From contig JBKPCD010000175.1 in NCBI GenBank assembly GCA_046727175.1, positions 1,669-65,668 on the forward strand: 64,000 nucleotides of DNA, read 5' to 3'. Position numbers and translations under genes: made by a program. Below are positions 832-63,187 of the stretch, in pieces (within the stretch, counting starts at the first letter, position 1; each line of letters opens with the position of its first letter). The DNA comes from Acidobacteriota bacterium. Its GTDB lineage: Bacteria > Acidobacteriota > Vicinamibacteria > Vicinamibacterales > 2-12-FULL-66-21. The notes under the pieces are model-generated. The model saw only the letters and a program-made list of their open reading frames with translations. It searched no databases and was not told the DNA's origin.

Positions 832-941
832 GAGTAGTGAATTACGAATTGTGAATTGACTCACGACTCGGGTCCAGCGCGTAACTCCGGACGACCTGCC
901 GCAGGTGCTGTCAATTCACGATTCGCAATTTCGTTCTACTC
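832..941. repeat. low-complexity inverted repeat (GAATT-rich arms)
   Basis: Left arm gagtagtgaattacgaattgtgaattgac (832-860) pairs imperfectly with gtcaattcacgattcgcaatttcgttctactc (910-941). The loop is about 49 nt. Confidence 0.7.
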
Positions 942-986
942 GCGAGCCTCTCCGCCGCACACGCTGGGCGCGACGGAGTCGTGCAC

Positions 987-1073
987 TTACACCAAGGCGA
1001 ACACGACGATCGCGCACACGAGCAGAAGCGCTACCAGAGCTTCCGCGTTGCTCGAAACATCCATATCGAACAT
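987..1073 (-). CDS. possible 28-aa hydrophobic micro-protein
   Basis: My own minus-strand translation gives MFDMDVSSNAEALVALLLVCAIVVFALV-stop. An AAGGA lies about 11 nt upstream of the ATG (1071-1073). It is below the ORF-track size cut-off and I make no homology claim. Confidence 0.2.
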   Translation of the reverse strand: MFDMDVSSNAEALVALLLVCAIVVFALV

Positions 1074-1225
1074 GAGGGTTTCCGTCCTTTCACTTGGTTA
1101 GACGCGCAACCCCCGGGCAAAGTTTAGCGATGTCGTGTTAACTCCATGTAATTTCTGTGACGGGCGAGTGACAGATCGATGCGGCGTCGTTTCCGGTTCG
1201 CGCCCGGCGTAAGTCGGAGTTGTGA

Positions 1226-2146
1226 CTACTTCTGTGTGGTCTCGACAGCGGTGGCGACGTAACTTTTGCGCGCACGAGGCGAGACGCCGGCCCGCTTGAC
1301 TTTGACGTCCAGCTTGTGGACCTTGCCATCAAGGACCGTGGGTGAGAAGCCCAGCAGGTACTGGCTGTGCAGTTCCTGGGCTACACGGGTGAAGGTCGAC
1401 CCGAGCTCGTCCTTTCGCTTCAGAAGAAAGAAGCCGCCGCCGGTTTCCTCCGACAGCCTTTTCAACCGCCGATCGGGGCTCGAACGCGTCTGCTTCGCCC
1501 CGTCGAAGTACTCGTTCTCCAACCCAATCGAATAGACCATCACGTCGTCCTGCCGCGCCCGATCGACGACCTCTCCGGATCCGATGCGGCTCGCGTTGTC
1601 ATCTCCATCGGTGAAAACGAGGATTACCTTGCGCCCTTCGACGGGATTGAGTTGCTCGATGCTCTGATCGATGGCGTCGAACAACCGGGTCGGATATCCG
1701 AAGTCCAGCTCTTTCAATGCTCGCACCAGTTGATCGCGGTTGTCGCTGAATGGCAAACCGGGTTGCGGAATGAACTGTATCTTGTCATTGAACGCACCGA
1801 CCTTGGCCTTGTCCTGCGGGAGCAACCGTAACAGGAATTGCTCCGCGCCTTCTTTCACGAAGTCGAGCGCGACGGTCATGCTGCCGCTCGTGTCGATCAT
1901 CACGATTGCCGTGATCGGCGTCGGCTCGTTATCGAAGTTCGTGATCGTCTGCAGCTTTCCGTTGTCGTAGACCTCGAAATCCTCCTGCACGAGATCCGAG
2001 ACGAGCCGCTTCTCCTGATCGGTGACGGTCGCGAAGAGCGGCACGACGATCGAAGGTCCGACCTTGATTCGCTGCGCGTGAACGGAGATGGACAGCACGG
2101 TCGCCGTGACGACCGTCGCAAGGCAGACGAGGACGCGAATTCGCAT
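1226..2146 (-). CDS. von Willebrand factor A (VWFA) domain protein, acidobacterial type, secreted
   Basis: MIDAS-like IVMIDTSGSM and ILVFTDGDDNAS. Signal peptide starts at MRIRVLVCLATVV, so the start is trimmed to 2146. Confidence 0.8.
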   Translation of the reverse strand: MRIRVLVCLATVVTATVLSISVHAQRIKVGPSIVVPLFATVTDQEKRLVSDLVQEDFEVYDNGKLQTITNFDNEPTPITAIVMIDTSGSMTVALDFVKEGAEQFLLRLLPQDKAKVGAFNDKIQFIPQPGLPFSDNRDQLVRALKELDFGYPTRLFDAIDQSIEQLNPVEGRKVILVFTDGDDNASRIGSGEVVDRARQDDVMVYSIGLENEYFDGAKQTRSSPDRRLKRLSEETGGGFFLLKRKDELGSTFTRVAQELHSQYLLGFSPTVLDGKVHKLDVKVKRAGVSPRARKSYVATAVETTQK

Positions 2147-2379
2147 AATGGTGATCGAAAGTAACTGCAGGATTTGTTCCACGGCCCGGGTTCGAGAAAC
2201 GGCGACCTGCAGCGATGCGTCTCGAACGATTGCCTCAATCTCGAAACATCCGCGCCACCCCCAAGAGACAGTCTAACAGCCTCCCGTGCTCCACCGAACC
2301 TTCGTGAGTCAAACCCGAACTCCGACGCGACGCGCAAGAGCGAGCTCCCGGGCTACCGCACTACCGGCGCGCCATTTTC

Positions 2380-3060
2380 TCATCGACCGCGGAGGAGCTG
2401 TTCGAGAACAGGCTGGATGGCTTCAGCCATCAGGCGGTATCCGGCAGGCGAGGGATGCAATGAATCAGCCGAGTCGATCAGCTTGTCGGGGTTGCCAGGA
2501 GCGGCGACCGCCCGGCGCGTGTCGACGAACGCGACATCGGAATCCGCGCGCGACCGAATCCACGCGTTGATTCGATGCATCTTGTCGTTCTGTTCAGGTG
2601 TGGCGGTGTTGTAGGGAACAATCGTTCCTGCCACGATCCGAATTCCGGCTCGCTTCGAGCGGTCGTACATGTCACGCAACTGCTCGATCACGTGTTCGAC
2701 GGGGCGTCCCTGATAAACGTCGTTCACCCCGGCGATGATGACGACGGCGGCTGGACGCAGGTCGAGGACATCGCGGTCGAAGCGGCGGCGGATCTCATCG
2801 CTCCGCTCGCCGTTGACGCCCCGGTTCAGCACCTCCCATTCTTGATGCGCCTGCATCAACCAGTAGGCATATTGACTTGTTTCGTCTCCCTGTCCTCGCG
2901 GCGGCGCCTCGAGCGGAGACTTCCATCCGGGCGTGCCGGCAGTGGTCGAGTCGCCCAGCGCGACGATACGCGTCTTGGGCGAGCCTTGAGGCGTTCGGCC
3001 GAGCGCCATGAGTGCGGCGAGAGCCATCATCGGTTGGAGGAGACGGAGATCACGGAACAA
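2380..3060 (-). CDS. SGNH/GDSL-family hydrolase
   Basis: Block I VALGDSTTAG, block III IIAGVNDV, block V DSLHPS, plus an N-terminal signal peptide. Confidence 0.8.
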   Translation of the reverse strand: MFRDLRLLQPMMALAALMALGRTPQGSPKTRIVALGDSTTAGTPGWKSPLEAPPRGQGDETSQYAYWLMQAHQEWEVLNRGVNGERSDEIRRRFDRDVLDLRPAAVVIIAGVNDVYQGRPVEHVIEQLRDMYDRSKRAGIRIVAGTIVPYNTATPEQNDKMHRINAWIRSRADSDVAFVDTRRAVAAPGNPDKLIDSADSLHPSPAGYRLMAEAIQPVLEQLLRGR

Positions 3061-3062
3061 GC

Positions 3063-3262
3063 ATTCACCACAGAGTCACGGGGTTCACGGAGGTTAATCA
3101 GGTTAATTCATGAATCCGGGGTACCACGCATCAGACATCCGGGGTGAGATGAGTACCGTCCACTCCCCGAAGTAAAGACGAAATAGAACCGAATATCCCC
3201 GTGAGCCCCGTGCCTCCGTGGTAAAGGCCTTGTCCGTGCCCTCCGCTCGCTCCGTGTCCTCC
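3063..3262. repeat. low-complexity inverted repeat (CACGGRG units) in a divergent promoter gap
   Basis: ttcaccacagagtcacgggg (3063-3083) is near-complementary to ccccgtgcctccgtggtaaa (3207-3226). Further CCGTG/CCTCC units run to 3262. Confidence 0.6.
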
Positions 3263-3343
3263 CGAAAGCGGACTTGACTGGTCGGACATCCCGGGATACG
3301 CTTGCAAAACGAGATCAGTCTCATTTTCCCGTCGGAGCGGTTC

Positions 3344-4114
3344 ATGTTGCAGTCGTTCGTGGTGACCCTGCGTGAGGGGCTCGAAGCGTTTCTGATTGTC
3401 GCAATCAGCCTGGCCTACCTGCGAAAAACCGGGCGAGATGCACTGATTCCGGCAGTCCACTGGGGCATCGTCGCGTCTGTTCTGCTGAGCATCGGCGCCG
3501 GTGTGCTGCTCGCTCAGGCGGCAAATCAGGCGTTGTGGGAGGCGCTCCTGGCCCTGGTCGCCGCCGTTCTGGTTGCATCGCTGACGATTCACATGTGGCG
3601 AGCGGGCCGGCACATGAAGCGCGACATCGAAGGGCGTCTGGAGACCTCCTCGGTCAAAACGGGAGCTGCGGCATTCCTCGGCGTTTTCGCGTTCACGCTG
3701 CTGATGATCACGCGCGAGGGCATGGAGACGGCGCTGCTCATGAACGCGCTCGTCTTTCAAGTTCGATCGCCGAACATCCTCACCGGTGCACTGGCCGGCA
3801 CGGCCGCTGCCGCCTCGGTCGCCTGGTTGTGGTCGCGTTACGGACATCGCGTTAACCTCGCGAGGTTCTTCCAGGTCACCGCTATCTTCCTGCTCGTCTT
3901 CGTCGTGCAACTCGTCATCTACGGCTTCCACGAGCTGACGGAGGCGAACATCTTCCCCGGCAGTCAACCCTGGCACGATGCGACGGAGCCGTATGGACCC
4001 GACGGCATCTATGGTCAGTATCTGACTTACCTCCTCGTGCTCTTGCCGCTCGGGTGGCTCGTGATCTCGAGTCTTCGACACCGGAGCCACGCGCAGCGGT
4101 CGCAGGCAGCGTAG
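3344..4114 (+). CDS. FTR1-family high-affinity iron permease
   Basis: Two REXXE motifs (TLREGLEAFLIV and ITREGMETALL) in a polytopic membrane protein. Start trimmed to ATG 3344. Confidence 0.8.
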   Translation: MLQSFVVTLREGLEAFLIVAISLAYLRKTGRDALIPAVHWGIVASVLLSIGAGVLLAQAANQALWEALLALVAAVLVASLTIHMWRAGRHMKRDIEGRLETSSVKTGAAAFLGVFAFTLLMITREGMETALLMNALVFQVRSPNILTGALAGTAAAASVAWLWSRYGHRVNLARFFQVTAIFLLVFVVQLVIYGFHELTEANIFPGSQPWHDATEPYGPDGIYGQYLTYLLVLLPLGWLVISSLRHRSHAQRSQAA

Positions 4115-4121
4115 CGAGCAA

Positions 4122-4180
4122 GAGGTTCCCGGTTCCCGGTTCCAGGTTCAGAAGGTTCGGAACCGGGAACGGTGAACCTC
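4122..4180. repeat. low-complexity hairpin (GGTTCCC units)
   Basis: gaggttcccggttcccggttcc (4122-4143) pairs with ggaaccgggaacggtgaacctc (4159-4180) at 20 of 22 positions. Lies just after the FTR1 stop. Confidence 0.8.
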
Positions 4181-4199
4181 GCTGGCGTAGAATCGGCGG

Positions 4200-4616
4200 A
4201 TGGTCCAGAAACCGCCGACACAAGTCCAGCTGATCTGGGAGCACGACCTCGTGGTCGGCGGGTCCATGGGTGATGTCAGGCTGACCTTCGACAGCGCCGG
4301 GATCGCAGGACCCTCGCCCGTGCAGACACTCGCGTTTGCGCTCGCGGCCTGCATGGCGATGGACGTCGTCCACATCCTGCGCAAAGGCCGGTACGATCTG
4401 CGCGGGCTCAAGGCGACCTTCACCGGCCATCGCGCGCCGGAGGCACCACGGCGGTTCACGTCGACCGAATTGCACTTCACAATCACCGGAAGCGTCCCCG
4501 ACGATCAAGTACAGCGCGCAATCGATCTTTCCCGCGAGAAATACTGCTCCGTCTGGCACTCAATGCGCCAGGACATCGCCTTCACGGTCACCTTCAAGGT
4601 CACGGGCGGACTCTAA
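4200..4616 (+). CDS. OsmC/Ohr-family peroxiredoxin-like protein
   Basis: 138 aa with the family size and the two conserved Cys contexts (..LAACMAMD.., ..KYCSVWHS..). Confidence 0.75.
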   Translation: MVQKPPTQVQLIWEHDLVVGGSMGDVRLTFDSAGIAGPSPVQTLAFALAACMAMDVVHILRKGRYDLRGLKATFTGHRAPEAPRRFTSTELHFTITGSVPDDQVQRAIDLSREKYCSVWHSMRQDIAFTVTFKVTGGL

Positions 4617-4650
4617 CGCCGTCCGCCCGCAGGCAGAAGGTAGAGTCGAG

Positions 4651-4732
4651 CAGGCCGCTGAAAAAGGCGGCCTGATCGAAAATGGCAAATGGGAGTGGCA
4701 AAATGCAGAGGTTTTTCCCATTTTCCATTTAC
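4651..4732 (+). repeat. composite intergenic element, copy 1: GC hairpin with CTGAAAAAG loop, then AAATGGCAAATGGGA / TCCCATTTCC inverted repeat
   Basis: caggccgc-tgaaaaag-gcggcctg (4651-4674) looks like a terminator stem. It is followed by aaaatggcaaatgggag ... ttcccattttccattt. About 80 percent identical to 37146-37218. Confidence 0.7.
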
Positions 4733-5890
4733 CATCTGCCGCGCGCAGACCTCGAGAAACCGCCAGCACGCCGCGGGTACCTGGATTGGATGCGGGGCCT
4801 CGCTGTCCTCATCATGATCGAGGCACACGTCATCGACAGCTGGACGGGGGGAGCGGATCGCGACAGCGTAGGGTTCAGGTGGTCGGCAACTCTCGGCGGT
4901 TTCGGTGCGCCGCTCTTTCTCTTTCTTGCCGGCGTGGCGGCTGTCCTCTCGGCTGGCGGGAAGTCGAGGCGCAACGGCAGCGCGTCGGATGCCTCGCGCG
5001 CCGTGGCGCGTCGGGGAGCCCAGATCTTCGGGCTCGCGTTTCTATTCCGCATTCAGGCGTGGATACTTGGCCGGGGACCCGCGTGGACGCTGCTCCGTGT
5101 CGACATCCTCAACATCATGGGACCGTCGATCGTGGCTGCGGCCGCACTGTGGCGCTCCAGCACGACATCGCGCAGCCGTTATCTCGCGTTCGCTGTCGCG
5201 ACGGTTGCCGTGCCGCTTGTGACACCAATCGTTCGCGGGCTTGACGCACTGGCCGTCCTTCCCGATCCATTGGAGGCGTACGTTCGCCCGACTTCGAGTT
5301 TGAACAACTTCATGCTGTTCCCGTGGTGCGGGTTCGTGTTCGCCGGCGGACTGCTTGGCCTGCTGATCGACGCGAACCGCAGCCGCGCGGACGAAGTGCG
5401 TCTCGCGTCGCGAGTCTCGGTCGGCGGGCTGATGATTTCAGCAAGTTCGTTCGGGCTCTCGTTTCTGCCGAGCCCGTACCCCTCGTCCTATTTCTGGACG
5501 ACGTCTCCGTGCTTTTTCTTTCTGCGCGCTGGTCTCATGGCCGCCAGTCTTGGCCTGGTCTCACTCGGGTATCTTCGCCGACGCGCGGTTGGTTCCTGGA
5601 ACCCCATCGAGCAGCTCGGACGCACGTCGCTGTTCATTTACTGGATTCACGTCGAGATGGTGTACGGCCTCGTTTCGAGATCGCTACACCAGTCGCTGAC
5701 TCTCGGACAGGCCTGGCTGGCCTGGGCGATCTTCAGCGGCTTCATGCTCGTATGCTCGATCGGCAGGGATCGTTTCGTCGCGTGGTGGCAGATGCGTCAA
5801 CCCGGCTCCGGCGACTTCGACACGACCGTTTATTCGGACCGAATCGCAGCGAGTGGGTCGACGCCAGCGGCGCGCCGGGCCGGCAGGTAG
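4703..5890 (+). CDS. DUF1624 / heparan-alpha-glucosaminide N-acetyltransferase-like polytopic membrane protein
   Basis: ..RRGYLDWMRGLAVLIMIEAH.. N-terminal signature followed by about 9-10 TM segments. Start is uncertain (ATG 4682 or 4703); both lie inside the repeat element. Confidence 0.6.
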   Translation: MQRFFPFSIYHLPRADLEKPPARRGYLDWMRGLAVLIMIEAHVIDSWTGGADRDSVGFRWSATLGGFGAPLFLFLAGVAAVLSAGGKSRRNGSASDASRAVARRGAQIFGLAFLFRIQAWILGRGPAWTLLRVDILNIMGPSIVAAAALWRSSTTSRSRYLAFAVATVAVPLVTPIVRGLDALAVLPDPLEAYVRPTSSLNNFMLFPWCGFVFAGGLLGLLIDANRSRADEVRLASRVSVGGLMISASSFGLSFLPSPYPSSYFWTTSPCFFFLRAGLMAASLGLVSLGYLRRRAVGSWNPIEQLGRTSLFIYWIHVEMVYGLVSRSLHQSLTLGQAWLAWAIFSGFMLVCSIGRDRFVAWWQMRQPGSGDFDTTVYSDRIAASGSTPAARRAGR

Positions 5891-8253
5891 CAGGCGACCG
5901 ACACCGCCAGTCCAAGCAAGGCCGCAGCGGTCACGAAGCTGATGATGTCGAGCGGCACGATGCCGAAGAGGAGTGTTCTCATCGAGCGTGCCGCGATCAG
6001 CGCGAGCGGAATGCCTGCGGCAATGCCGAACGCGGCGGTATCACCGATGCCGCGGAACACGACGAGGATGATGTCGCGCCGCGTGGCACCGAGCGCCATC
6101 CGGACACCGAACTCCTTGGTCCGGATGCTGACGGCGTACGCGACGAGGGCGTGCACGCCGCTCGCGGCAAGGAGCAGCGCAAGCGCCGCGAATGCGCTCA
6201 GAAGCGCGGACGTGAACGTCCAGGGTTTTCGCGCGTCCTCGACCAGGCCTTCCAACGTCGTGATCTCAATCGGCTGATTGGCATCGAGCTGGCGAATGGC
6301 GGTACGAACAGCACCGGCGATGCTTTCCGGGCGTGCGGTCGTTCTGACCGCCCACGTTTTCACCGACCAGGCGGGCGTGAACAAGTCGAGACGCGGTTCC
6401 GCGAGCTCACGATGGCGCAGGGTTGCAACGACACCCACAATCGTAGTGAAAGGATCGTTGTCCGATCCCCGAAATACTCGAAGCTTCCGGCCGACCACAT
6501 CGGTGCGGCCCCACAACCGCAGTGCGGTTATTTCCGTGACGATCGCAACCGGCGGCGCGACATCGATATCCGCCTCGGTAAACAGACGGCCGGCAAGAAG
6601 GCGCATGCCGATCGCGGAAAAGTATCCAGGCGTGACCCGCAGGTAGCTGAGGCCCGGATTTTGCTGGATGTCGGATCGTTGCTGCCCTTCCACCTGAAAT
6701 CTCGCGTCGTCGCCTATCGGTCCGAACGCGAGCGGTTTCAGCGATACGCCGCCGACTGCCTCCACTCCAGGGAGCGTTGCCAGGGTGGCGGCGATTTGGC
6801 GCGCGTACGCGGGCGTCTTGTCCACCGGCTGCGTTTCCGACCCGATCGGCACGTCGACGAGCAGCACTCGGGCCGCCGTGTAGCCGACGTCGAGCGCACG
6901 CAGGTTGAAGAAGCTTCGCGCCGCCAGGCTTGCTGCAGTCAGCACAGTTAACGTCAACGCGATCTCGGCAGCGATCAGAAATCGTCGCGTCGGTGTCGGC
7001 CCGGTGCTTTCTGCTCCGACGCGAAGCGAACCAGATCCTCCCGTTCTGTGCATGATCGGCCACATGCCTGCTACGACGGCGACGGCGATCGATACCGCGA
7101 TCAAGAACGACATCGCGCGGCCATCCAGCGCGACGTCGCTCACGTGGTCCAACACCGAAGGCGCGAGTGCCACGAACCCGCGGAGCCAGAACAACGCGGT
7201 GAGTATCGCGCCGACGACGGCCGCCGCGCACAACAGCAGCGACTCCGCCAGCAAAAGCGTCAGCAGATGGCCGGGCGATGCTCCAAGCGCCACGCGAATG
7301 CTCATCTCGCGCTCGCGCCCGGACGCGCGGACCAGGGCCATCCCCGCGACATTCGTGCAAGCCAAAAACAGCACGAGCGCGACCGCGGCGAACAGAAGCA
7401 AAAGCGCCGGTCGCGTGGGACCCAGAATGTGATCGACCAGCGGCGTCAGCGTCGCACGCTGCTCGCGCTGCCCGCCGAAGAAGCTCGGCGCGAGCGTTTT
7501 GATCCACTCGGTCGTCTCCACCTGCGCAGCCTCGATCGTGACGCCTGGAGCCAGACGCGCGAGGACATACAGGAACCCGATGTTTCGAAGATTGTCTCGC
7601 GCGTCCTGCGACAGGGTTTCCTCGAGGTGAGGCCCCAGCGCCATCCACAGCTGGGCGCCGCGTGGATAGTCGAAGGCCGGAGGCATGACACCAGCGATCG
7701 TGAACACTCGTCCGTCAAGGGACACGGGCCGTCCGATCGCCGCACGATCGCTGCCGAACCGTTCGCGCCACAGGCGATGGCTGAGTACCGCGACGCGCGG
7801 TGCCCCCGGTCGTTCGTCACTTCGGAACAGCCGCCGTCCGATCAACGGCGGAGTGCCGACGACCTCGAAGAATGACGACGAGACGGCTGAGAAGGGCAGA
7901 TTAACAGGCTCCCCGTAGCCGGTCATCACCGTATTCCAGTTCACGCTTCCGTACGCCGCAACGTGCGCGAACGCGCGCGTTTGGGTTTGCAGATCGAGGA
8001 AGTCGGGATACGACACTTCGATGAGCGGATTGTTTGGGGCGCTCCACCACAGCGTCACGAGACGCTGCTGGTCTCTGAAGGGCAGAGGACGAATGAGCGT
8101 TGCGTCGACGAGGTGAAACACCGCAGTCGCGGCCCCCGTCGCCAGGGCGAGGATTGCGGTTACAGCAAGCGCATACAAAGGCCGGCGTCTCAGCGACCGG
8201 ATCGAATAGCGCGCTTCCCGTACGAGAGCACTCGCGTGCAGCACAGCGCCCAT
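5830..8253 (-). CDS. ABC transporter permease, MacB/FtsX type with duplicated FtsX domains (ADOP-like)
   Basis: About 800 aa. N-terminal ..RYSIRSLRRRP.. motif, two MacB periplasmic plus FtsX 4-TM modules, C-terminus ..YLPARRAAGVDPLAAIRSE. Alternative start at 8313. Confidence 0.85.
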   Translation of the reverse strand: MGAVLHASALVREARYSIRSLRRRPLYALAVTAILALATGAATAVFHLVDATLIRPLPFRDQQRLVTLWWSAPNNPLIEVSYPDFLDLQTQTRAFAHVAAYGSVNWNTVMTGYGEPVNLPFSAVSSSFFEVVGTPPLIGRRLFRSDERPGAPRVAVLSHRLWRERFGSDRAAIGRPVSLDGRVFTIAGVMPPAFDYPRGAQLWMALGPHLEETLSQDARDNLRNIGFLYVLARLAPGVTIEAAQVETTEWIKTLAPSFFGGQREQRATLTPLVDHILGPTRPALLLLFAAVALVLFLACTNVAGMALVRASGREREMSIRVALGASPGHLLTLLLAESLLLCAAAVVGAILTALFWLRGFVALAPSVLDHVSDVALDGRAMSFLIAVSIAVAVVAGMWPIMHRTGGSGSLRVGAESTGPTPTRRFLIAAEIALTLTVLTAASLAARSFFNLRALDVGYTAARVLLVDVPIGSETQPVDKTPAYARQIAATLATLPGVEAVGGVSLKPLAFGPIGDDARFQVEGQQRSDIQQNPGLSYLRVTPGYFSAIGMRLLAGRLFTEADIDVAPPVAIVTEITALRLWGRTDVVGRKLRVFRGSDNDPFTTIVGVVATLRHRELAEPRLDLFTPAWSVKTWAVRTTARPESIAGAVRTAIRQLDANQPIEITTLEGLVEDARKPWTFTSALLSAFAALALLLAASGVHALVAYAVSIRTKEFGVRMALGATRRDIILVVFRGIGDTAAFGIAAGIPLALIAARSMRTLLFGIVPLDIISFVTAAALLGLAVSVACYLPARRAAGVDPLAAIRSE

Positions 8254-9592: not shown

Positions 9593-9669
9593 ATCCGCGT
9601 CGTGAGAGATTTCGATCCGCGGACGTCCGTAAAACCCGCGTCTCGTTGTTCTCGATCCGCATAAGAAAA

Positions 9670-53924: not shown

Positions 53925-54699
<775 letters not shown>

Positions 54700-54716
<17 letters not shown>

Positions 54717-56145
54717 GAAGCTTCAACCCTGGCTTGCCGCGCTCGAGACGCGGCCGCAGCGAGGCGCCCGCTGGCTGCAGGATCTTCGGGATCGTGGAGC
54801 GGCGAAGTTCGCGGCGCTCGGGTTCCCGACTACGCGCGAGGAAGAGTGGCGGTTCACGAGCGTTGCGCCGATCGCGAACGCCGAGTTTCGACTGGCGTCG
54901 GCACCGCAGGCTCTGACCGAGGATCAATTGAACGGCTTCGTGTACGCCAGCGCTGCTCATCGCCTCGTCATCGTCAACGGTCGCTTTGCACCGGCGTTAT
55001 CGCGGGTCTCGGGTCTTCCCAAAGGGGTTCGGTTTGGTTCCCTCGCGACGGCGATGTTGGAGCAGGCTGATACCGTCGCGCGGTACTTCGGCCGCCTTGC
55101 GGAGTTCGGGACGCGGGCGTTCACCGCGCTGAACACCGCGTTCGCGCATGACGGCGCGTTCGTCGTGATCCCGGACGGGTTGGTGCTCGAAGAGCCGCTG
55201 CAGATTCTTTTTGTTTCAACAGGATCCACAGCGGCGGGGTCTAAAGACCCCGCCCTACAACTGTCCCACCGTGGCGCCTCGCTTTCTTCGCATCGTAGCG
55301 CCCGGTCTTCAGACCACGCGGCACTGCGGTCTTCAGACCGCGCGGCTCTACCCGCGACAATGTCGCATCCGCGGAGTCTGATTGTTGCCGGCGATCGCAG
55401 CCAGTCCCGTATCGTCGAGACGTACGTCGGGATCCGCGGGGAAACGTATTTCTCGAACGCCGTGACCGAGATCGTCGCGGGCGAGAACGCGGTCCTCGAT
55501 CACTACCGCGTCCAGGAGGAAAGCCGCGAGGCGTACCACATCGGCAGCCTCCACGTGCACGCGGCGCGCAGCGCCACGTTCTCGTCGCACTCGTTCGCGA
55601 TCGGGGGCAGGCTCGTGCGCAACGACGTGTTTGCGCTGCTCGACGGCGAAGGCGCGGAGTGCACGCTCAACGGTTTGTATCTGGCCGACGGCGAGCGCCT
55701 GATCGACAACCACACCACGATCGATCACGCGAAACCCCATTGCCCCAGCCACGAGGTCTACAAAGGGATTCTCGGGGGCAAGGCGAAAGCCGTCTTCAAC
55801 GGGAAGATCATCGTCAGGCCGGACGCGCAGAAGACGGATGCGAAGCAGACGAATCGCGCGCTGCTGCTCACCAATGACGCGACGATCAACACGAAGCCCC
55901 AGCTGGAGATTTTTGCCGACGACGTGAAGTGTACGCACGGCGCGGCAATCGGTCAGCTCGACGACGACGCGCTGTTCTACCTGCGCGCGCGCGGCCTGAC
56001 GTTCGCAGAAGCCCGCGACATGCTCATCCATGCATTCGCGGGAGAGATTCTCGACCGCGTGCAGATTCCCGATCTGCGCAGCGGGCTCGAGGACGAGTTG
56101 TACTCCCAACTGGCGAAAGATCTCGCCGAGGTCGATGCCGCATGA
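54700..56145 (+). CDS. sufD: Fe-S cluster assembly protein SufD, carrying a ~43-codon low-complexity insert
   Basis: The C-terminal two thirds are clearly SufD-like (..TIDH..P...S....KGIL.G.A..VF.GKI.V...AQKTDA.Q.N..LLL..). Position between sufC and sufS fits. Confidence 0.85.
55222..55350 (+). repeat. in-frame cluster of REP-like palindromes inside sufD
   Basis: GGCGGGGTCT-aa-AGACCCCGCC (55233-55254), then two cggtcttcagacc(r)cgcgg units. Translates to GSTAAGSKDPALQLSHRGASLSSHRSARSSDHAALRSSDRAAL with no stop codon. Confidence 0.7.
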
Positions 56146-57389
56146 CTTCCAGCGTGGCCGCACGGCGTGTTGCGTTCGATATCGAGCGCATTCGAGCCGA
56201 CTTCCCGATTCTGCGTCGCGAGGTGAGGGGGCACCCGCTCGTGTACCTCGACAATGCCGCGACAACGCAGAAACCGCAGGCCGTCCTCGACGCCCTCACG
56301 AGCTATTACACCGACATCAACGCGAACGTTCATCGCGGAGTCCATCAACTCAGCGAGCTCGCGACCGAAGCGTACGAGGGGTCGCGCGAGAAGATCCGTC
56401 GCTTCTTCAATGCCGCGAGCACACGCGAAATCGTGTTCACGAGAAACGCGACCGAAAGCATCAACCTGGTCGCCAACGTATTCGGGCGATGGAAGCTCGC
56501 AGCCGGCGACGAGGTGGTCATCTCGGCGATGGAGCACCACTCGAACATCGTTCCCTGGCAGCTGATCTGCGAGGAACGGAACGCCCGCCTCCGGGTGGCG
56601 CCCATCGAGGATCGCGGCGAGCTGATTCTCGAGGAGCTCGATCGTCTGATCGGCCCGCGAACGAAGCTGGTCTCGATTGCGCACATGTCGAACGCGCTCG
56701 GAACCATCAACCCGGTGAAGGAAATCGTCCGCATGGCCCACGCGCGCGGCGTGCCAGTGATGTTCGACGGCTCGCAAGCCGCATATCACATGCGCGTCGA
56801 CGTTCAGGCGCTCGACTGTGATTTCTACGCCGCCACGGGTCACAAGATCTACGGGCCGACAGGAATTGGAATCCTGTACGCCAAGGAGCGGTGGCTGGAG
56901 GCGATGCCGCCGTTCATGGGTGGCGGCGACATGATTCGGACCGTCGCGTTCGAGAAGTCGACCTGGAACGACCTGCCCCACAAGTTCGAGGCGGGGACAC
57001 CGGATATTGCGGGAGCCATCGGCCTCGGCGCCGCGATCGATTACGTCCAGGGGGTTGGCCTCGACGCGATCGAATCGCACGAGCGCGATCTCCTCGAATA
57101 CGGGACGGCCGCGCTCGCATCGGTTCCCGGGCTGCGAATCATCGGAACCGCGAGGCGGAAGGCGAGCATCCTGTCGTTCGTGATGGATGGAGTTCATCCG
57201 CACGACATCGGCACAATCGTGGACCGCGAGGGAGTGGCGATTCGAACGGGCCATCATTGCGCGCAGCCGCTGATGGACCGCTTCGGCATCCCTGGCACGG
57301 CGCGGGCCTCGCTCGCGATGTACAACACGCGCGAGGATCTGGACGCGCTGGTGCGTGGGCTGAAACAGGTTCGGACGCTGTTCGCGTAG
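56142..57389 (+). CDS. sufS: cysteine desulfurase SufS (class II)
   Basis: ..LDNAATTQKP.., PLP lysine ..ATGHKIYGPTGIG.., active-site ..RTGHHCAQP... ATGA overlap with the sufD stop. Confidence 0.9.
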   Translation: MTSSVAARRVAFDIERIRADFPILRREVRGHPLVYLDNAATTQKPQAVLDALTSYYTDINANVHRGVHQLSELATEAYEGSREKIRRFFNAASTREIVFTRNATESINLVANVFGRWKLAAGDEVVISAMEHHSNIVPWQLICEERNARLRVAPIEDRGELILEELDRLIGPRTKLVSIAHMSNALGTINPVKEIVRMAHARGVPVMFDGSQAAYHMRVDVQALDCDFYAATGHKIYGPTGIGILYAKERWLEAMPPFMGGGDMIRTVAFEKSTWNDLPHKFEAGTPDIAGAIGLGAAIDYVQGVGLDAIESHERDLLEYGTAALASVPGLRIIGTARRKASILSFVMDGVHPHDIGTIVDREGVAIRTGHHCAQPLMDRFGIPGTARASLAMYNTREDLDALVRGLKQVRTLFA

Positions 57390-57419
57390 AGAGAAAGGGA
57401 GAAAGAGCGAGAACGGGAG

Positions 57420-57887
57420 ATGGACTCCCGTCCTCCCATACCCATGTCGGACCTCACCGACCTCTATCAGGAGGTGATCCTCGACCACAACAAGCGGCCG
57501 AGGAATTTCGGCGTACTCGCCGACGCGAACCACTCGGCGGATGGTTACAATCCGCTCTGCGGCGACAAGGTGCACCTCTCTCTGCGCGTTGACGACGACA
57601 TCGTGACGAACGTCGCGTTCCAGGGTTCGGGCTGCGCCATCTCGAAGGCGTCAGCGTCGATGATGACCGACTCCATCAAGGGCCGGTCGGTAGCGGAGGC
57701 ACGCGATCTGTTCGCCCGCTTCCACCGGATGGTCACCACGCCGCCGGATCAGCCGACCGAGGATCTAGGGAAACTGTCGGCGCTCTCGGGTGTGCGTGAA
57801 TTCCCGGTCCGCGTCAAGTGCGCGAGCCTCGCCTGGCACACGTTGAAGGCGGCGCTCGACCGGGAGCCGATCACGTCTACTGAGTGA
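57420..57887 (+). CDS. sufU: SUF-system Fe-S scaffold / sulfur acceptor SufU (NifU/IscU-like)
   Basis: ..NPLCGD.., ..GSGCAISKASASMM.., ..RVKCASLAW... Alternative start at ATG 57444. Confidence 0.85.
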   Translation: MDSRPPIPMSDLTDLYQEVILDHNKRPRNFGVLADANHSADGYNPLCGDKVHLSLRVDDDIVTNVAFQGSGCAISKASASMMTDSIKGRSVAEARDLFARFHRMVTTPPDQPTEDLGKLSALSGVREFPVRVKCASLAWHTLKAALDREPITSTE

Positions 57888-57910
57888 GTGGGAAACGTTC
57901 TGCATGAGAC

Positions 57911-57971
57911 AGAAGTGAGAAGCGAGAAGTTAGCGTGAACTGTGTCACGATCGATCTAGCTTCTAGCTTCT
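57911..57971. repeat. low-complexity hairpin (AGAAGY units) between sufU and sufT
   Basis: agaagtgagaagcgagaagttagc pairs with ctagcttctagcttct. Confidence 0.6.
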
Positions 57972-57983
57972 GACCTGATCAAC

Positions 57984-58379
57984 ATGAAGTCTTTACCGAT
58001 GATGCCGCAACCGTCGCCCGAGCCGCCGCCGTCGACGACCGAGACAGCCGCGCTGGTTCCGGACGCCGCCAAGACCGCGGAGCTGAAGCCGGGGATCATC
58101 GATGCGATTCGGACGATCTTCGACCCTGAGATTCCCGTGAACATCTGGGAGCTGGGTCTCGTGTACGACATCGTCGTGGATTCGACCGGCATCGCGGGCG
58201 TCCGGATGACGCTTACCGCACCTGGATGCCCGGCGGCGCAGTCATTGCCGGTGGAAGTCGCGACGAAGGTGAAGGCCGTCCCGGGCGTGACTGACGCGAA
58301 GGTGGACATCGTGTGGGAGCCTGCGTGGAGCAAGGACAGGATGTCCGATGCCGCGAAGCTCCAGTTGGGACTCTGGTAA
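57984..58379 (+). CDS. sufT: DUF59 / MIP18-family Fe-S assembly protein (SufT-like)
   Basis: ..IFDPEIPVNIWELGLVYDI.. and ..LTAPGCP... Confidence 0.7.
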   Translation: MKSLPMMPQPSPEPPPSTTETAALVPDAAKTAELKPGIIDAIRTIFDPEIPVNIWELGLVYDIVVDSTGIAGVRMTLTAPGCPAAQSLPVEVATKVKAVPGVTDAKVDIVWEPAWSKDRMSDAAKLQLGLW

Positions 58380-58840
58380 TGCTGCGCCTTTCAAAGAAGG
58401 CCGACTACGCGCTGATCGCGATGAAGCACCTGGCGACCCGTCCGGGTGCAGCGTCGGCGAGCGCACGCGAGATCGCCGAGCAGTACGACATCCCGATTGA
58501 GCTGATGGCAAAGGTGCTGCAGCGACTCGTTCGTCGCGGTCTCCTGTCCTCGCACCAGGGCACCAGGGGCGGATACCGCCTGTCCAAGCCGACGACCTCG
58601 ATTTCGGTGGCCGATATCATCCAGGCGATCGACGGCCCGTTCACGGTCACGGCGTGTTCGACCGACGCGGCGAATTGCGGGCAGTTCGCGAAGTGCAGCG
58701 TCCGCGATCCGCTGTGGCGGATCAAGGATCGAATTCTCGCCGCTCTCGCCACGTGCTCGCTCGAGGAAATCTCGGCCGAGGCGCCGGTCGAGGAAGTGGC
58801 CACGCCGCTCGCCTTCACGCGCATCGCGAAAAGCCAGTGA
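58379..58840 (+). CDS. Rrf2-family transcriptional regulator (IscR-like, Cys-ligand type)
   Basis: MLRLSKKADYALIAM.. wHTH and a three-Cys pattern ..ACSTDAANCGQFAKCS... TAATG overlap with the upstream stop. Confidence 0.85.
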   Translation: MLRLSKKADYALIAMKHLATRPGAASASAREIAEQYDIPIELMAKVLQRLVRRGLLSSHQGTRGGYRLSKPTTSISVADIIQAIDGPFTVTACSTDAANCGQFAKCSVRDPLWRIKDRILAALATCSLEEISAEAPVEEVATPLAFTRIAKSQ

Positions 58841-58841
58841 T

Positions 58842-58966
58842 CAGGCTCTGGGCTCACGGCTTTTGCCTTTCGGCTTTGGGCTCATGGAGTCTGAACGGAG
58901 CTGTTCATTGCCCAAGAGCCGCAATTCGGCAGGCACGCCTAAAGCCCCTGAGCCCTGAGCCCAGAG
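58842..58966. repeat. low-complexity inverted repeat (GGCTCTGGGCT / AGCCCAGAG units) between rrf2 and the second cysteine desulfurase
   Basis: caggctctgggctcacggc... pairs with ...gagccctgagcccagag. Confidence 0.75.
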
Positions 58967-60140: not shown

Positions 60141-60491
60141 GCTTTTCGCGTTCCGCTGACGGGATTCCGCGCCGTCGCGTAATTGCTTCCACTCGGGCTC
60201 GCAATCGTACGCCTGGGCACGCGAGCGGTATCTTCCACTGACGTTTTTGTCCTTCGTATTCGTGTTCAACCGGCGTTCTCAAGGGCCAGCCATTCTGCGC
60301 GCTCACAGTTCAGTCGAACAGCGGAAGCAGTCGCGGCACAACGAGTTGCGTCGGCCGGTCGATTGGCCTCATCCGCCCGTCAGCATCGACAGATAGACCC
60401 CGTTCACGCAATTGTAAGTTGGTCTACCCAAACCACTGAGTACGGACGAGCAAACGCGCGTCGTGGCAACAAGGTTGCTCGCATTACCGCG

Positions 60492-62042
60492 ATGCCACAC
60501 CTCAAGCCCGACAGTAGGTGTCGACCGCTGGTCGTCGTCTCGAATCGCGAGCCCTACGTGCACTCGTACAGCCACAACGGGCCGATTGTCGCGACGGCAA
60601 CAACCGGCGGTCTGGCAGTCGCTCTGGACTCTTTGATGCGCGAGCGTGGTGGCACCTGGATCGCTCACGGCGCCGGCGAAGCGGACCGCGCAGTCGTCGA
60701 CAGGAACAGCCGAGTCGCCGTGCCGAGTGACGCGCCTGCATACACGCTGCGTCGGGTCTGGCTCTCTCCTGATGAGGAACGACGCTACTACCACGGCTTC
60801 GCAAACGAAGGCCTGTGGCCGATGTGTCACACCGTCGATGTTAGGCCTCTGTTCAGATCCGAAGATTGGGCCGAATACAGCCGCGTGAACGCTCGGTTCG
60901 CCGAAGCAATCGCGGCCGAGCTTTGGGACCCTGCTGTTCCGGTCTTCATTCACGATTACCACCTCGCGCTGACGGCGGCCGCCCTTCGGACACGCCATCC
61001 ACGCGCGCGTACCGCATTGTTCTGGCATATCCCGTGGCCTCATCCCGACCGCCTGCGGATCTGCCCATGGCGGCGGGAGATCATGATTGGCCTTCTCGCC
61101 AACAACCTGCTCGCCTTTCAGCTCGAGCGAGACCGACGCAACTTTCTCTTGTGCGTACGCGACGAGCTGCCGTCGGCAATCGTCGAATCGGGGCAGGTGA
61201 TGCTGAACGGGCGCGTAACGGAAGTGATCGCTGCTCCGATTGGCGTCGACGCCGCTCGGATTCATCGGACGACCCTGGATCCGCAACTCCCAGCTGAAAC
61301 GGCACGCCTGCGAAAAGAGCTCGCGCTCGACGATCCACGCGTGAGCGTCATCGGTGTGGGTGTCGATCGGCTGGATTACACCAAAGGTATTCCGGAGCGT
61401 CTCGACGCGATCGAGCGCCTGCTCTGGTTGCGTCCCGATCTCCGCGATCGGCTCGCATTCGTCCAGGTCGGAGTGCCGTCACGATCGAAGATCTCGACCT
61501 ATGCGGAAATCGAACGCCGGGTCGACGCAAGGGTTGCGGAGATCAATACGCTGTACGGCGAGGGCCCCGAGCGTGGTCCGATTCGCCTGCGAAAATCGGC
61601 TCTGACGCTGCGCCCGCTCGTCGCCCTGTATCGCCTCGCCGACTTCTGCATCGTCAGTTCGCTGCACGATGGAATGAACCTCGTGGCCAAAGAGTTCGTC
61701 GCGTCGCGAGACGACGGGGATGGCGTGCTGGTTCTGAGCGAGATGACCGGCGCCGCGCAGGAGCTTACGGAAGCGCTTCTGATCAACCCATATCACGTCG
61801 ACGGGTTTGCGCTGGCCATCGAGCGCGCGATAGCGATGCCGGCTTCGGAGCGCGCGTATCGCATGCGCGCGCTGCACCGCGTCGTCGCGGCGCGTGACAT
61901 TTCACAGTGGGCGTCTGGAATACTCGATCGTCTGGGAAAGGCGCAGCCGGTGTTCAGGGAAGTACGGTCGAGAGCGCAGCGGAGCACGGGCCGACTCCGC
62001 ATCAGCGCTGTGGCGGACCGCGTGAGATCAAATGTCAGTTGA
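60492..62042 (+). CDS. otsA: alpha,alpha-trehalose-phosphate synthase (GT20)
   Basis: ..[10 protein letters not shown].., ..GGLAVAL.., ..[10 protein letters not shown].., ..DYHL.., ..[11 protein letters not shown].., ..[13 protein letters not shown]... Start trimmed to ATG 60492. Confidence 0.8.
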
Positions 62043-62061
62043 CGACATACGAAGCGCTGCC

Positions 62062-62267
62062 ATTGCAGATTGCGGATTGAAGAGTGCGGCTTGCCGGATT
62101 GCTGCTTGCAGATTCTGATTGCCGACTTGTAGATTGGTCGGCGTCGATCGTCGGTTGGACAATCAGCAATCCGTCAATCAGCAGTCAACAATTCCGTTAA
62201 TCCAGGAATCACTACTCCGTCAATCCGCAATCGGCAATCCGTAAATCTGCAATCCGCAATCTGCAAT
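62062..62267. repeat. 206-nt low-complexity inverted repeat (GATTGC / GCAATC units) with a perfect 18-bp outer stem
   Basis: attgcagattgcggattg (62062-62079) is the exact reverse complement of caatccgcaatctgcaat (62250-62267). The interior is built from the same units. Confidence 0.85.
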
Positions 62268-62279
62268 CTTCAATTGTCT

Positions 62280-63125
62280 ATGCCTCCGACCACTATCACC
62301 GTCGCGCATAGTTCCGATTCCGATGATGCGTTCATGTTCTACGGGCTGGCGAGCGGCAACGTGGACACCAACGGCGTTGTTGTCGAGCAGGTTCTCGCCG
62401 ACATCGAGACGCTGAACCGCGCCGCGTTCGAAGGGCGGTACGAGGTGACGGCGGTCTCGTTTCACGCTTACGCGCACCTGGCCGACAAGTACGCGCTCCT
62501 GCCGCACGGCGCGAGCATGGGCGACCGCTACGGGCCGATTGTCGTCGCGCGTCAGAACGGTCCGACAACGGTGAAGGACGCGCGCATCGCGATTCCCGGC
62601 ACGCTGACGACCGCGTATCTCGCGCTGCGAATGTACGAGCCTTCGTTCGATTACGTCGTGCTGCCGTTCGACGAGATTCAACCGGCGGTCGTCGACGGCC
62701 GCGTCGAGGCAGGGCTGCTGATTCACGAAGGCCAGCTGACGTACGCCGACGAAGGGCTTCTCAAGATCGTAGATCTGGGCGAGTGGTGGGCCGAGCGAAC
62801 CGCCGGCCTGCCGCTGCCCCTCGGCGGCAACATCATCCGCCGCGATCTCGGGCCGGCGCTGATGAACACGGTGTCGAAGATGCTGCACGACAGCATCGCC
62901 TACGCACTCTCGCACCGCCCAGAGGCTGTCGAATACGCGCTGCAGTTCGGGCGCGGCCTCGATCGCGCCCGAGCCGATCGCTTCGTCGGCATGTACGTGA
63001 ACGACTTGACGCTGTCGTACGGCGACCGGGGCAAATGTGCTGTCGAGCGGCTGATGGCCGATGCATTCGAGCGAGGGCTGATCCCGCAGCGGGTGGCTGT
63101 GGAATTCGTCACCGCAGAAGAATGA
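62280..63125 (+). CDS. MqnA/MqnD-family menaquinone (futalosine pathway) biosynthesis protein
   Basis: ..[16 protein letters not shown].. N-terminal motif and periplasmic-binding-protein-like length. I cannot separate MqnA from MqnD by eye. Confidence 0.65.
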
Positions 63126-63187
63126 CAGGAGATCAGGAGGTGAGGAGAAACAGCAAATGGTTTTCCTCCTTATCTCGTGATCTCCTG
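63126..63187. repeat. low-complexity hairpin (CAGGAGAT units) between convergent genes; right arm inside a CDS tail
   Basis: caggagatcaggaggtgaggagaaac pairs with gttttcctccttatctcgtgatctcctg. The right arm encodes ..SQEITR-stop of the minus-strand gene. Confidence 0.8.

Follow-up and report, generated by a model that had tools for sequence, protein, structure and literature searches.

What are the periodic inverted repeats that stand in about half of the gaps between genes in this stretch of acidobacterial DNA, and what might they do there? The stretch, 64 kb long and called the window throughout, belongs to a soil bacterium of the Vicinamibacterales (Acidobacteriota) that has not been cultured; its G+C content is 63%, and its genes are densely packed. 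An earlier note, made from its letters alone, had named 23 intervals in which short-period tracts occur, most of them as hairpins, and had found no family in which to place them. A placement can now be given. It is well supported that the elements are heptanucleotide simple sequence repeat (SSR) arrays that change in place by whole units and are arranged as inverted pairs, and they match heptanucleotide long SSRs, STRR-type hairpins, and the inverted heptamer pairs of Xanthomonas (PMC4692102, PMC2670836, PMC4679880). The polarity, strand, and stop-codon rules described below are new; full-text literature searches turned up neither an account of such arrays in Acidobacteria nor any mention of these rules.

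Periodic inverted repeats are concentrated between genes

All 23 intervals of the earlier note were found where it had placed them (Table 1). The 21 two-armed loci all folded into long hairpins, well beyond dinucleotide-shuffled controls (minimum free energy [MFE] z scores of -2.8 to -10.6), and at each of them a tract is paired with its own reverse complement. The one-armed loci at 12291-12327 and 43474-43504 are direct arrays and do not fold. The arm period of 7 to 9 nt proposed earlier held for most loci, being 7 in most families, 8 in CAGGAGAT, and about 9 in CACGGRG and CGCGGATTG, but 13894-13955 and 3063-3262 are weakly periodic.

Gene calls made with our own codon model gave 59 genes on 89% of the DNA and left 6.9 kb (11%) intergenic. 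A strict tandem-tract scan for periods of 4 to 12 (our own scan; TRF was also used) detected nine tracts in the window. All nine lay within the intergenic 11%, and eight had period 7; these eight consist of head-to-tail 7-nt units in at least three copies, as heptanucleotide arrays do, with units of 8 and 9 nt in a minority of families. Pooled intergenic DNA matched itself at lag 7 (0.320) and lag 14 (0.306), with further peaks at 21 and 28, over a baseline of about 0.256, and coding DNA gave a lag-3 signal only. Ungapped inverted repeats scoring at least 13 numbered 2.6/kb in intergenic DNA versus 0.28/kb in coding sequences (CDS), about a 9-fold difference; intergenic arms had a lag-7/8 self-match of 0.63 to 0.87, and the inverted repeats in CDS were without periodic arms. 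By strict scan, lag self-match, and inverted-repeat density alike, tracts and inverted repeats are strongly concentrated between genes. Whole gaps folded with a mean z of -2.0 versus -0.13 in length-matched CDS pieces, and z was below -3 in 32% of gaps versus 1% of CDS pieces. The arrays are real and highly non-random, far beyond chance.

The hairpins sum to about 2.1 kb of the intergenic DNA. Periodic hairpins occupied 20 of the 41 gaps of at least 35 nt, with the highest share in convergent gaps (5/6) and lower shares in tandem (13/29) and divergent (2/6) ones. About 10 unit families were present, and several recurred: GGTTCCC, GGCTNNN, and ATTGCNG three times each and CAGGAG four times. Such recurrence is far above that of a uniform draw from roughly a thousand unit classes. 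The location between genes, claimed for all loci by the earlier note, is exact for the strict tracts, but some arms overlap gene ends. The TAA of a BON-domain gene (27207-27209) lies inside a first arm, the last ~13 codons of the open reading frame (ORF) 20648-21256 are array (21218-21256), and the 3′ arm of 63126-63187 overlaps the end of the convergent gene (63170-63187).

Arms are polar and arrays begin at stop codons

An inverted repeat is identical on both strands, so a G-rich, C-poor arm that comes first is an intrinsic property of the element. In the window, the 5′ arms of intergenic inverted repeats contained 179 G, 96 C, 143 A, and 96 T; G exceeded C in 13 loci, and C exceeded G in 5, by 1 to 2 nt. 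Chance inverted repeats inside window genes had no G/C skew in their arms. The same order was found in a comparison set of 80 SufB loci from many phyla (1.36 Mb), in which 26 periodic hairpins had 281 G and 123 C in their 5′ arms (G>C in 20, G<C in 3; p = 5e-4). It was strictest in a set of 117 distinct metagenome loci with AAGTACG arrays, where the reverse-complement arm lay downstream in 33 and upstream only in none (p = 2e-10); both sides carried one in a single case, and 83 loci were single arrays.

The strand of flanking genes in the AAGTACG set was read from the G+C phase at codon positions (GC3), which replaced a plain ORF-based orientation that was too noisy in high-G+C DNA and which, on window genes, was correct for 30, wrong for 0, and undecided for 14. 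The purine-rich strand of single arrays was the sense strand of co-directional neighbors by 28:4, and the upstream gene was directed into the array by 32:4. Single arrays and hairpins taken together (41 loci) stood in 19 convergent, 21 tandem, and 1 divergent contexts. Measured from where the upstream stop codon ends, the median array start was at -2 nt, with 82% of starts within -21 to +20 nt, and the stop codon lay inside the array in more than half of cases, as it does at 27207-27209 in the window. In tandem gaps of the window, the stem begins a median of ~11 nt past the stop and ends a median of ~19 nt ahead of the next start. The two divergent-gap loci that the earlier note had singled out are real but atypical, since the independent 41-locus set has 1 divergent versus 19 convergent cases.

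These strand, context, and position rules show a process or selection oriented by transcription or translation of the upstream gene, which argues against a purely DNA-level, strand-symmetric origin. Polarity may itself be a consequence of the other rules: where an array arises next to a stop codon with its G-rich strand as the sense strand, a templated second arm fits on the free downstream side only.

Whole units are gained and lost between strains

The earlier note had raised the doubt that the hairpins are assembly artefacts, a reading whose probability we now regard as negligible. De Bruijn/short-read contigs do break inside the near-perfect hairpin 27198-27287, as expected of a long inverted repeat. 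However, Logan contigs from four independent soil/rhizosphere runs span six hairpins (20451-20557, 25831-25966, 26768-26870, 43919-44022, 62062-62274, and 63126-63187), and a 50.7-kb contig from another metagenome (L095), which matches 22116-30654 at 98.96% identity, includes all three hairpins of that stretch.

At the ~1% divergence between the window and L095, the difference rate was 1.8% in intergenic DNA versus 0.97% in genes. Among the hairpins, the differences comprised 6 nt inserted into one arm, two substitutions in the arm that pairs with it, and the loss of 1 nt from a loop. At hairpin 25831-25966, where a strain variant has the 5′ arm lengthened by a 6-nt insertion and the 3′ arm altered by 2 substitutions, compensatory change was considered and rejected, because the substituted bases do not form Watson-Crick pairs with the insertion and the MFE stays the same. 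Hairpin 26768-26870 carries a 10-nt arm insertion in one strain. Changes of exactly one unit were found at two loci. In two samples, the contigs that carry hairpin 20451-20557 are each short of exactly 7 nt in both arms, at 20465 (5′ arm) and again at 20535 (3′ arm), and a third sample has the window form. Two samples of hairpin 43919-44022 have an extra ATTGCGG unit in the 5′ arm (at 43920), which takes the arms from 4:5 to 5:5 units. Gene indels in the stretches around these two hairpins were of 1 or 3 nt. Whole-unit indels, in one case matched in both arms, fit slipped-strand mispairing together with either selection for pairing or arm-to-arm templated correction. Quasipalindrome template switching is known in E. 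coli.

Over longer distances, hairpins both persist and disappear. The closest relative by SufB (93% amino-acid identity) is a Vicinamibacterales metagenome-assembled genome (L001), and further close relatives are Acidobacteriota. L001 is syntenic with the window over 45.9-63.9 kb, with genes 70-80% identical in nucleotides. Both genomes have a sufA-sufB hairpin and a convergent MqnA-side hairpin, but not in the same sequence. Between sufB and sufC, the hairpin of the window is periodic and that of L001 is of a plain G+C kind, and the hairpins after sufU and after the Rrf2 gene occur in the window and not in L001. The sufA-sufB hairpin is also present in a third genome, L003, and its units drift around an (A/G)GTTCC core: the window has GGTTCCA/AGGTTCC, L001 has AGTTCCC/AGTTGCC/AGTGGCC, and L003 has AAGTTCC/AAGTTGC/GAGTTAC. 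These are one family drifting by point change and homogenization. Relatives with 69-73% G+C have short gaps and no hairpin.

The GT20 (trehalose-6-phosphate-synthase-like) gene at 60492-62042 and its 213-nt hairpin are absent at the syntenic site of L001 (window 60141-62279 versus L001 17392-17488). L001 has a one-armed (GGAAGCT)x4 array there, abutting the MqnA start codon.

Similar arrays occur in many soil bacteria

Period 7 also led among the 80 SufB loci, with 23 of 46 strict tracts. The 26 periodic-arm hairpins of this set amount to 1 per ~50 kb, compared with 11 in the 64-kb window by the same criteria, and their carriers include Acidobacteriota, Thermoanaerobaculia, Verrucomicrobiota, Planctomycetota, Bacteroidota, Abditibacteriota, and others. 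The density that the earlier note had called unusual is indeed about 9 times the average of the comparison loci, but loci from three other lineages (L023, L003, and L024) are similarly dense.

Some unit families reach far beyond the window. The 21-mer AAGTACGAAGTAAGAAGTACG, from the arm at 27197, was found exactly in at least 120 metagenome contigs; among the 45 listed, G+C ranged from 36 to 68% and the flanks were unrelated. Word depth in metagenomes was 805-10255 in the CGCAATC arm at 62229-62275 (flanks, ~5-8), 256-1426 in the (GGGAAAA)n array at 43474-43504 (flanks, ~5), 226-1113 in the arm at 21250-21321 (flanks, ~7), and 41-294 in a GGTTCCC arm (host genome, 5-8); the CAGGAGAT arm had no excess. 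Depths so far above that of the host genome indicate that some families are common to very many loci and organisms. The recurrence of a single 21-mer in so large a collection does not by itself prove a universal preference, and a universal unit motif was rejected, since 52 arrays fell into 46 families with A+T enrichment as their only common trait. Nor are the motif alphabets unrelated, as the earlier note had put it: families recur within the window, orthologous hairpins share a drifting core, and several families are abundant in other soil genomes.

Arrays were also seen inside genes of other organisms. Two contigs of 36% G+C (L099 and L104) have heptamer arrays inside ORFs. A pyrD-like gene contains three AAGTACG/AAGTAAG units (21 nt) in frame, read as KYEVRST, followed by a second heptamer family, and in the verrucomicrobial L024 (7183-7700), a membrane-protein ORF is broken up by several arrays and a hairpin. 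Since three heptamers add up to 7 codons, in-ORF arrays can be tolerated as loop insertions. The array at 57911-57971 of the window and one at 15350-15566 of the planctomycete L032 both follow a sufU/NifU-like gene and are both of AGAAGYNAG type, a likeness that may reflect convergence or a widely shared family.

What the arrays may do

From the existence, periodicity, placement, polarity, strand bias, unit indels, and turnover of the arrays, we infer a slippage and re-templating mechanism, folding in vivo, and a function. The reading that we favor, with a probability of about one half, is that the arrays are remodelled in place by slippage and that, as RNA, they form stem-loops which define or protect the 3′ ends of mRNAs and divide operons into segments. 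The arrays sit directly behind stop codons in presumably transcribed spacer: 3′ untranslated regions, operon spacers, and convergent gaps. Replication slippage would add and remove whole units in place, without transposition, and one arm would probably be re-templated from the other by quasipalindrome correction. Because the inverted repeat is the same on both strands, a transcript from either side meets the G-rich arm, the loop, and then the C-rich arm. Its RNA would form a long stem-loop without a U-tract, by which the 3′ end could be defined or protected after Rho-dependent or read-through termination. Within operons, such stem-loops would split mRNAs into segments of unequal stability, as REP/BIME elements do in enterobacteria, and in convergent gaps they would act in both directions. 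Single arrays may be hairpins that are newly forming or have decayed, or they may serve the downstream gene as leader elements. E. coli transcripts that end by Rho-dependent termination are trimmed back to stem-loops, in agreement with this function, which also matches the absence of canonical terminators and the REP-like placement. The earlier note had held that a plain terminator role does not explain all of the loci, and none of the 21 hairpins has a T-run after its stem. Consensus hairpin-plus-T terminators in the window were not above shuffles (20 versus 14.4±4.5 and 11 versus 13.8±3.5), and nearly all of them lie inside genes. The sole convincing canonical terminator, at 9657-9707, has a GGGCATCG...CGATGCCC stem (hairpin 9668-9696) and a T-rich tail and follows a DndB-like gene.

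Several results weigh against an RNA function for the stem-loops. Sense and antisense folds were of about equal stability (MFE 8:5), so no strand-specific RNA selection is visible in the stems. Arms of 20-50 bp are far beyond what is needed to block an exonuclease and would be RNase III substrates. Many hairpins are missing at orthologous sites of L001, and the high-G+C relatives have compact gaps, so the elements are individually dispensable. Hairpins 43919-44022 and 62062-62274 end 4-5 nt before start codons and would impede translation initiation if stable in vivo, and two hairpins lie in divergent gaps. Metatranscriptome runs contained at most 12% of sampled words, a coverage too thin for transcript ends.

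The main rival is a largely neutral, self-perpetuating slippage product with a transcription-linked bias. Slippage-prone arrays with arm-to-arm template switching would expand until they meet a stop codon or ribosome-binding site and would be functionless by-products; a mutation bias tied to transcription would then lie behind their orientation rules, and R-loops and expansion may, for example, be favored where the non-template strand is G-rich. We consider this possible, although we lean away from it. It would account for the rapid turnover between relatives, with losses that are not replaced, for arrays that take up a gap from the stop almost as far as the following start and even overrun gene ends, and for arms much longer than known functions require, as well as for strain differences that are mostly unit indels and for the symmetry of sense and antisense folding. 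However, strand-symmetric mutation predicts no polarity, and ratios of 33:0, 20:3, and 28:4 were seen; convergent loci outnumber divergent ones 19:1, though gaps of the divergent kind are as a rule the longer ones; genomes with 85-93% SufB identity have kept the sufA-sufB hairpin; and one unit change is matched in both arms (20451-20557). Less probable still, and in our view unlikely, is that the hairpins are bidirectional intrinsic terminators without U-tracts. The pyrimidine-rich second arm would form a weak RNA:DNA hybrid while being captured by the G-rich first arm, and periodic arms would let the stem nucleate in many registers. Hybrids of pyrimidine RNA with purine DNA are the least stable type, and this mechanism would suit a window with essentially no canonical terminators, a periodic hairpin in 5 of 6 convergent gaps, and G-first polarity in both reading directions. 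Many hairpins nevertheless lie within clear operons (sufA/sufB/sufC), with no room for a new promoter, and mycobacterial RNA polymerase reportedly needs a U-tract at intrinsic terminators, which speaks against termination by U-less hairpins in general.

Two further readings start from the spacing of the stems and from the 7-nt period; we rate each as rather improbable. If the stem served translational coupling or occlusion by pairing the post-stop with the pre-start region, the downstream start would stay closed until a ribosome terminated upstream; coupling has already been suggested for STRR hairpins (PMC2670836). Stems in tandem gaps have the fitting geometry, with the medians given above and sometimes as little as 4-9 nt, but simple gap filling predicts the same geometry, and coupling is inapplicable to convergent gaps, the most consistently occupied class. 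Alternatively, the arrays might be cooperative platforms for a single-strand-binding protein with a ~7-nt footprint, such as those with cold-shock-domain or S1-type OB folds, whose binding would melt or prevent the hairpin and make termination, stability, or translation condition dependent. Period 7 does recur across unrelated units and phyla (as in the 23/46 strict tracts), single arrays are strand specific relative to mRNA, and CspB binds one protein per heptamer with weak sequence specificity (PMC4679880). However, 8- and 9-nt units exist too, and an alternative proposal is that polymerase slippage favors 7 nt (Mrazek 2007, as related in PMC4679880). A mobile origin, with the arrays as REP/REPIN or MITE elements or remnants of such elements that a transposase from another part of the genome had spread, appears very unlikely. 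Unit families recur in the window, an ~85-nt element is present twice, and the units occur at very many soil-metagenome loci. On the other side, loops and flanks are not shared by family members, GTAG/CGTC tags are not enriched, the 64 kb contain no transposase, copies vary in unit number and not in presence or absence of a fixed element, and orthologous hairpins drift gradually.

Beyond the stem-loop function that we favor, heptamer arrays and G-first hairpins might form a general class of polar cis elements at gene 3′ ends across phyla, served by a conserved machinery that works in 7-nt steps. We think this improbable, though it is worth stating. The machinery may be, for example, cooperative cold-shock-domain/S1 OB-fold binding or U-tract-independent bidirectional termination or insulation. 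If the idea were true, many soil bacteria would have an unrecognized layer of 3′-end control. A remote variant has the arrays seeded by telomerase-like reverse transcriptases, where a snap-back second strand would yield repeats followed by their complement. The DRT10/UG17 defence reverse transcriptase makes AGTAATA 7-nt tandem cDNA on both strands in a telomerase-like manner (bioRxiv 10.64898/2026.04.29.721553); DRT10 is rare and reported mainly in other phyla. AGTAATA is one substitution away from AGTAAGA, a rotation of the AAGTAAG unit in the window, but by our estimate, so near a match to one of ~15 families has a chance of about a quarter, and it is a lead only.

Whichever reading holds, heptamer arrays stand here at extreme density in an abundant uncultured soil lineage without canonical terminators. 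The polarity, strand, stop-codon, context, and unit-indel rules turn a vague repeat class into testable predictions on mRNA 3′ ends in high-G+C bacteria. There are practical consequences too: the arrays break short-read assemblies, they affect gene calling because they overrun gene ends, and their arm words reach depths of 100-1000 times the host genome in soil metagenomes.

Loci and neighboring genes

Table 1. Periodic arrays and hairpins of the window (z, MFE relative to dinucleotide shuffles)
Position	Strand	Element	Context	Measure
832-941		GTGAATT/ACGAATT (7-nt) hairpin	after ThiS-like gene (stop 814), convergent with candidate ORF 987-1073(-)	z -4.2; arm lag-7 0.73
3044-3245		long-loop CACGGRG (~9-nt) hairpin	divergent gap, GDSL lipase(-)/FTR1 iron permease(+)	z -2.8; 51-nt arms, lag-9 0.40
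4122-4180		GGTTCCC x3/GGGAACC hairpin	7 nt past FTR1 stop, 19 nt ahead of OsmC start	z -5.5
4640-4745		~85-nt dispersed element, copy 1: plain GC hairpin 4651-4673, then AAATGGC/AAATGGG periodic hairpin 4680-4730		
12291-12327	+	one-armed direct array (CGCGGATTG)x4, sense strand G-rich	4 nt past stop codon	
13889-13960		hairpin, purine-rich 5′ arm/pyrimidine-rich 3′ arm, little periodicity		z -5.2
20451-20557		GGTTCCC-family hairpin		z -5.9
21218-21310		GAAAGGG/GCAAAAG hairpin	5′ arm overlaps last codons of ORF 20648-21256	z -4.9
25831-25966		GGCTTTN/GGCTCNN hairpin		z -4.5
26768-26870		GGAGAA/AGGAGAA purine-first hairpin	between enoyl-ACP reductase and BON-domain genes	z -4.7
27195-27290		near-perfect hairpin, 40-nt arms, (AAGTACG AAGTAAG)n/(CTTACTT CGTACTT)n	fills convergent gap	z -10.6
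34205-34314		CACGAAGA/CACGAGG-type hairpin	divergent gap upstream of deoxyhypusine synthase gene	z -7.1
37135-37235		~85-nt dispersed element, copy 2: GC hairpin, then AAATGGC/AAATGGG hairpin		
39586-39666		CACGGRG/GGAGACGGG hairpin	convergent gap	z -3.4
43474-43504	+	one-armed (GGGAAAA)x4.6, sense strand purine-rich	fills 39-nt spacer, stop 43469 to ATG 43509	
43919-44022		ATTGCNG/CAATCAG hairpin	2 nt past stop, 4 nt ahead of UbiE start	z -8.7
50169-50337		GGCTCTT-armed outer hairpin around inner hairpin	fills SIMPL/RmuC convergent gap	z -4.8
52269-52318		GGTTCCA/AGGTTCC hairpin	between sufA and sufB	z -3.3
53806-53884		CAGGAGTN (8-nt) hairpin	between sufB and sufC	z -4.6
57391-57420	+	one-armed purine array (GAGAAAGG, 8 nt), new relative to the earlier note	directly upstream of sufU-like start	
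57911-57974		AGAAGYG/CTAGCTT hairpin	after sufU-like gene	z -3.2
58842-58966		GGCTCTG/GGCTTTN hairpin	1 nt past Rrf2 regulator stop, 16 nt ahead of next start	z -4.8
62062-62274		largest hairpin, ~10 ATTGCNG versus CAATCNG units	19 nt past GT20 stop, 5 nt ahead of MqnA start	z -10.6
63126-63187		CAGGAGAT (8-nt) hairpin	0 nt past MqnA stop	z -7.4

The loci that the earlier note had listed as 4651-4732 and 37146-37218 proved to be the same ~85-nt dispersed element, present at 4640-4745 and again at 37135-37235 with 83% identity. The GC hairpin part reads CAGGCC...GGCCTG, and the genes that follow the two copies are unrelated, one of the acyltransferase-3 family and the other a DUF4097 gene. The core of the element, AAATGGCAAATGGGA, was found in none of 200 comparison loci. 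It could be a small dispersed repeat, a shared leader, or a small-RNA-like module. AATCC tracts at 38184-38260 were absent from the earlier note; further weakly periodic tracts with AATCC-containing units, CGACCGAG 8-mers, and GGTGGTT/CAGGAG runs extend over 38184-38335 and 44770-44850, and these adjoin plain G+C hairpins at ~38398-38425 and ~44892-44919.

By Pfam annotation, the window contains housekeeping genes only. They include a suf Fe-S cluster operon (51940-58840), TonB-type outer-membrane proteins with CarboxypepD_reg domains, and iron and copper genes. The same annotation revealed no transposase, integrase, RAYT, reverse transcriptase, or Cas protein among the 59 genes. An Rfam scan of both strands of the 64 kb gave no match at gathering score, and a tRNA scan of the window found none. 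Public runs that contain window sequence are soil and rhizosphere metagenomes. Three neighboring features are recorded for completeness. A candidate small ORF of 28 hydrophobic residues (MFDMDVSSNAEALVALLLVCAIVVFALV, 987-1073 on the minus strand) lies between hairpin 832-941 and a VWA-domain gene, with a purine-rich stretch, read by eye, directly upstream of its start. The DndB-like gene (8453-9592) is a homologue associated with DNA sulfur modification, with no dnd partner genes visible nearby. L001 has an extra gene at 6137-7248, sulfatase-modifying-factor (FGE)-like from sequence alone and not in the window, followed by a ~40-nt tandem duplication, CATTTTCCTCTT.GYGGCTTCCGCCTT.AGGCGG, which the window lacks.

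Comparison with known repeats

The earlier note had set the loci apart from CRISPR arrays, transposase-bounded elements, and REP/BIME, and this held, since the 59 genes include no Cas protein or transposase and the tags are not enriched. For CRISPR, the units are moreover contiguous, without spacers, and no cas genes occur in the window; a MITE was rejected because there is no conserved core and copies differ in unit number and not in presence or absence. REP units measure 20-40 bp, have a sequence common to the whole family, bear a GTAG/CGTC tag, and are mobilized by RAYT transposases (PMC3733652). Like them, the window loci are extragenic palindromes between co-directional or convergent genes, a placement for which roles in mRNA 3′-end stabilization and operon expression levels have been proposed for REP/BIME. 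Unlike them, they have periodic arms and no shared sequence, tag enrichment, or transposase in the window: GTAG/CGTC was found at the feet of 6 of 21 hairpins, compared with 35% of random positions, and loops and flanks are not common to the loci of one unit family, with the ~85-nt pair (4640/37135) as the exception. Intrinsic terminators share with the hairpins a stable stem-loop just past a gene that is bidirectional in convergent gaps, but the hairpins have no U-tract, their stems are 20-50 bp with periodic arms, and many stand inside operons.

The closest likenesses are with heptamer repeats. Among long SSRs (LSSR; 5- to 11-nt units), heptanucleotides are the most abundant long-unit class, with slippage as the proposed cause (Mrazek 2007, as reported in PMC4679880 and PMC4692102). 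Patchy phylogeny and exclusion from coding DNA are common to LSSR and the window arrays; as these secondary sources describe it, the survey covers direct arrays, whereas inverted pairs, polarity, stop-codon position, and strand bias belong to the arrays described here. Units of 7 nt, a location outside coding DNA, and variation of unit number between strains, by which LSSR and STRR are recognized, were all found. Cyanobacterial STRR sequences are likewise tandem 7-bp units that are intergenic or intra-operonic, hairpin forming, and strain variable; they were reportedly described by Mazel in 1990 and Vioque in 1997. For STRR hairpins between hupS and hupL, raised transcript stability or translational coupling has been proposed (PMC2670836). 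STRR are found in heterocystous cyanobacteria with few genome-wide consensus heptamers, whereas the present host is a 63% G+C acidobacterium with mostly inverted pairs in about half of its gaps. With ~10 families in 64 kb and a Vicinamibacterales host, the strict name STRR is excluded and the kind of element is kept. TAACTGA heptamers form intergenic direct arrays in Beggiatoaceae, cyanobacteria, and Bacteroidetes and lie upstream of start codons in Beggiatoaceae; they comprise a single motif in direct repeats with one inverted case reported (PMC4679880). They are strand specific and often abut start codons, as do the one-armed arrays 43474-43504 and 57391-57420, but the window has many motifs, mostly as inverted pairs behind stops. 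Stops in all three frames, considered as a reason for the 7-nt unit, are given by AAGTAAG but not by GGTTCCC, GGCTCTG, or CAGGAGA.

In Xanthomonas, GGGAATC/GGGGAYT heptamers (also present in Nostoc) form 70-75 pairs per genome, always as convergent inverted pairs, and are transcribed (Rehm et al. 2015, PMC4692102). They too are mostly intergenic, and related species differ in repeat length but agree in whether the type is single or an inverted pair (PMC4692102). We read their "convergent orientation" as the same G-rich-first rule, which would correspond to the opposite-strand, G-rich-first arrays seen here (13:5 in the window, 20:3 in the 80 loci, and 33:0 for AAGTACG). Xanthomonas and Nostoc have one dominant G3-4 unit and G-quadruplexes, whereas G3 runs occur here only at the GGGAAAA/GAAAGGGG loci. 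Since most units lack a G3 run (GGTTCCC, ATTGCNG, AAGTACG, and GGCTCTG), the G-quadruplex explanation is not transferable; G-quadruplexes, like CsrA GGA sites, fit some families only. Heptanucleotide repeats are said to lack any detailed study (PMC4692102). What distinguishes the arrays of this acidobacterium is their density, their many unit families, and their strict rules, within a kind of repeat that is already known, though little studied.

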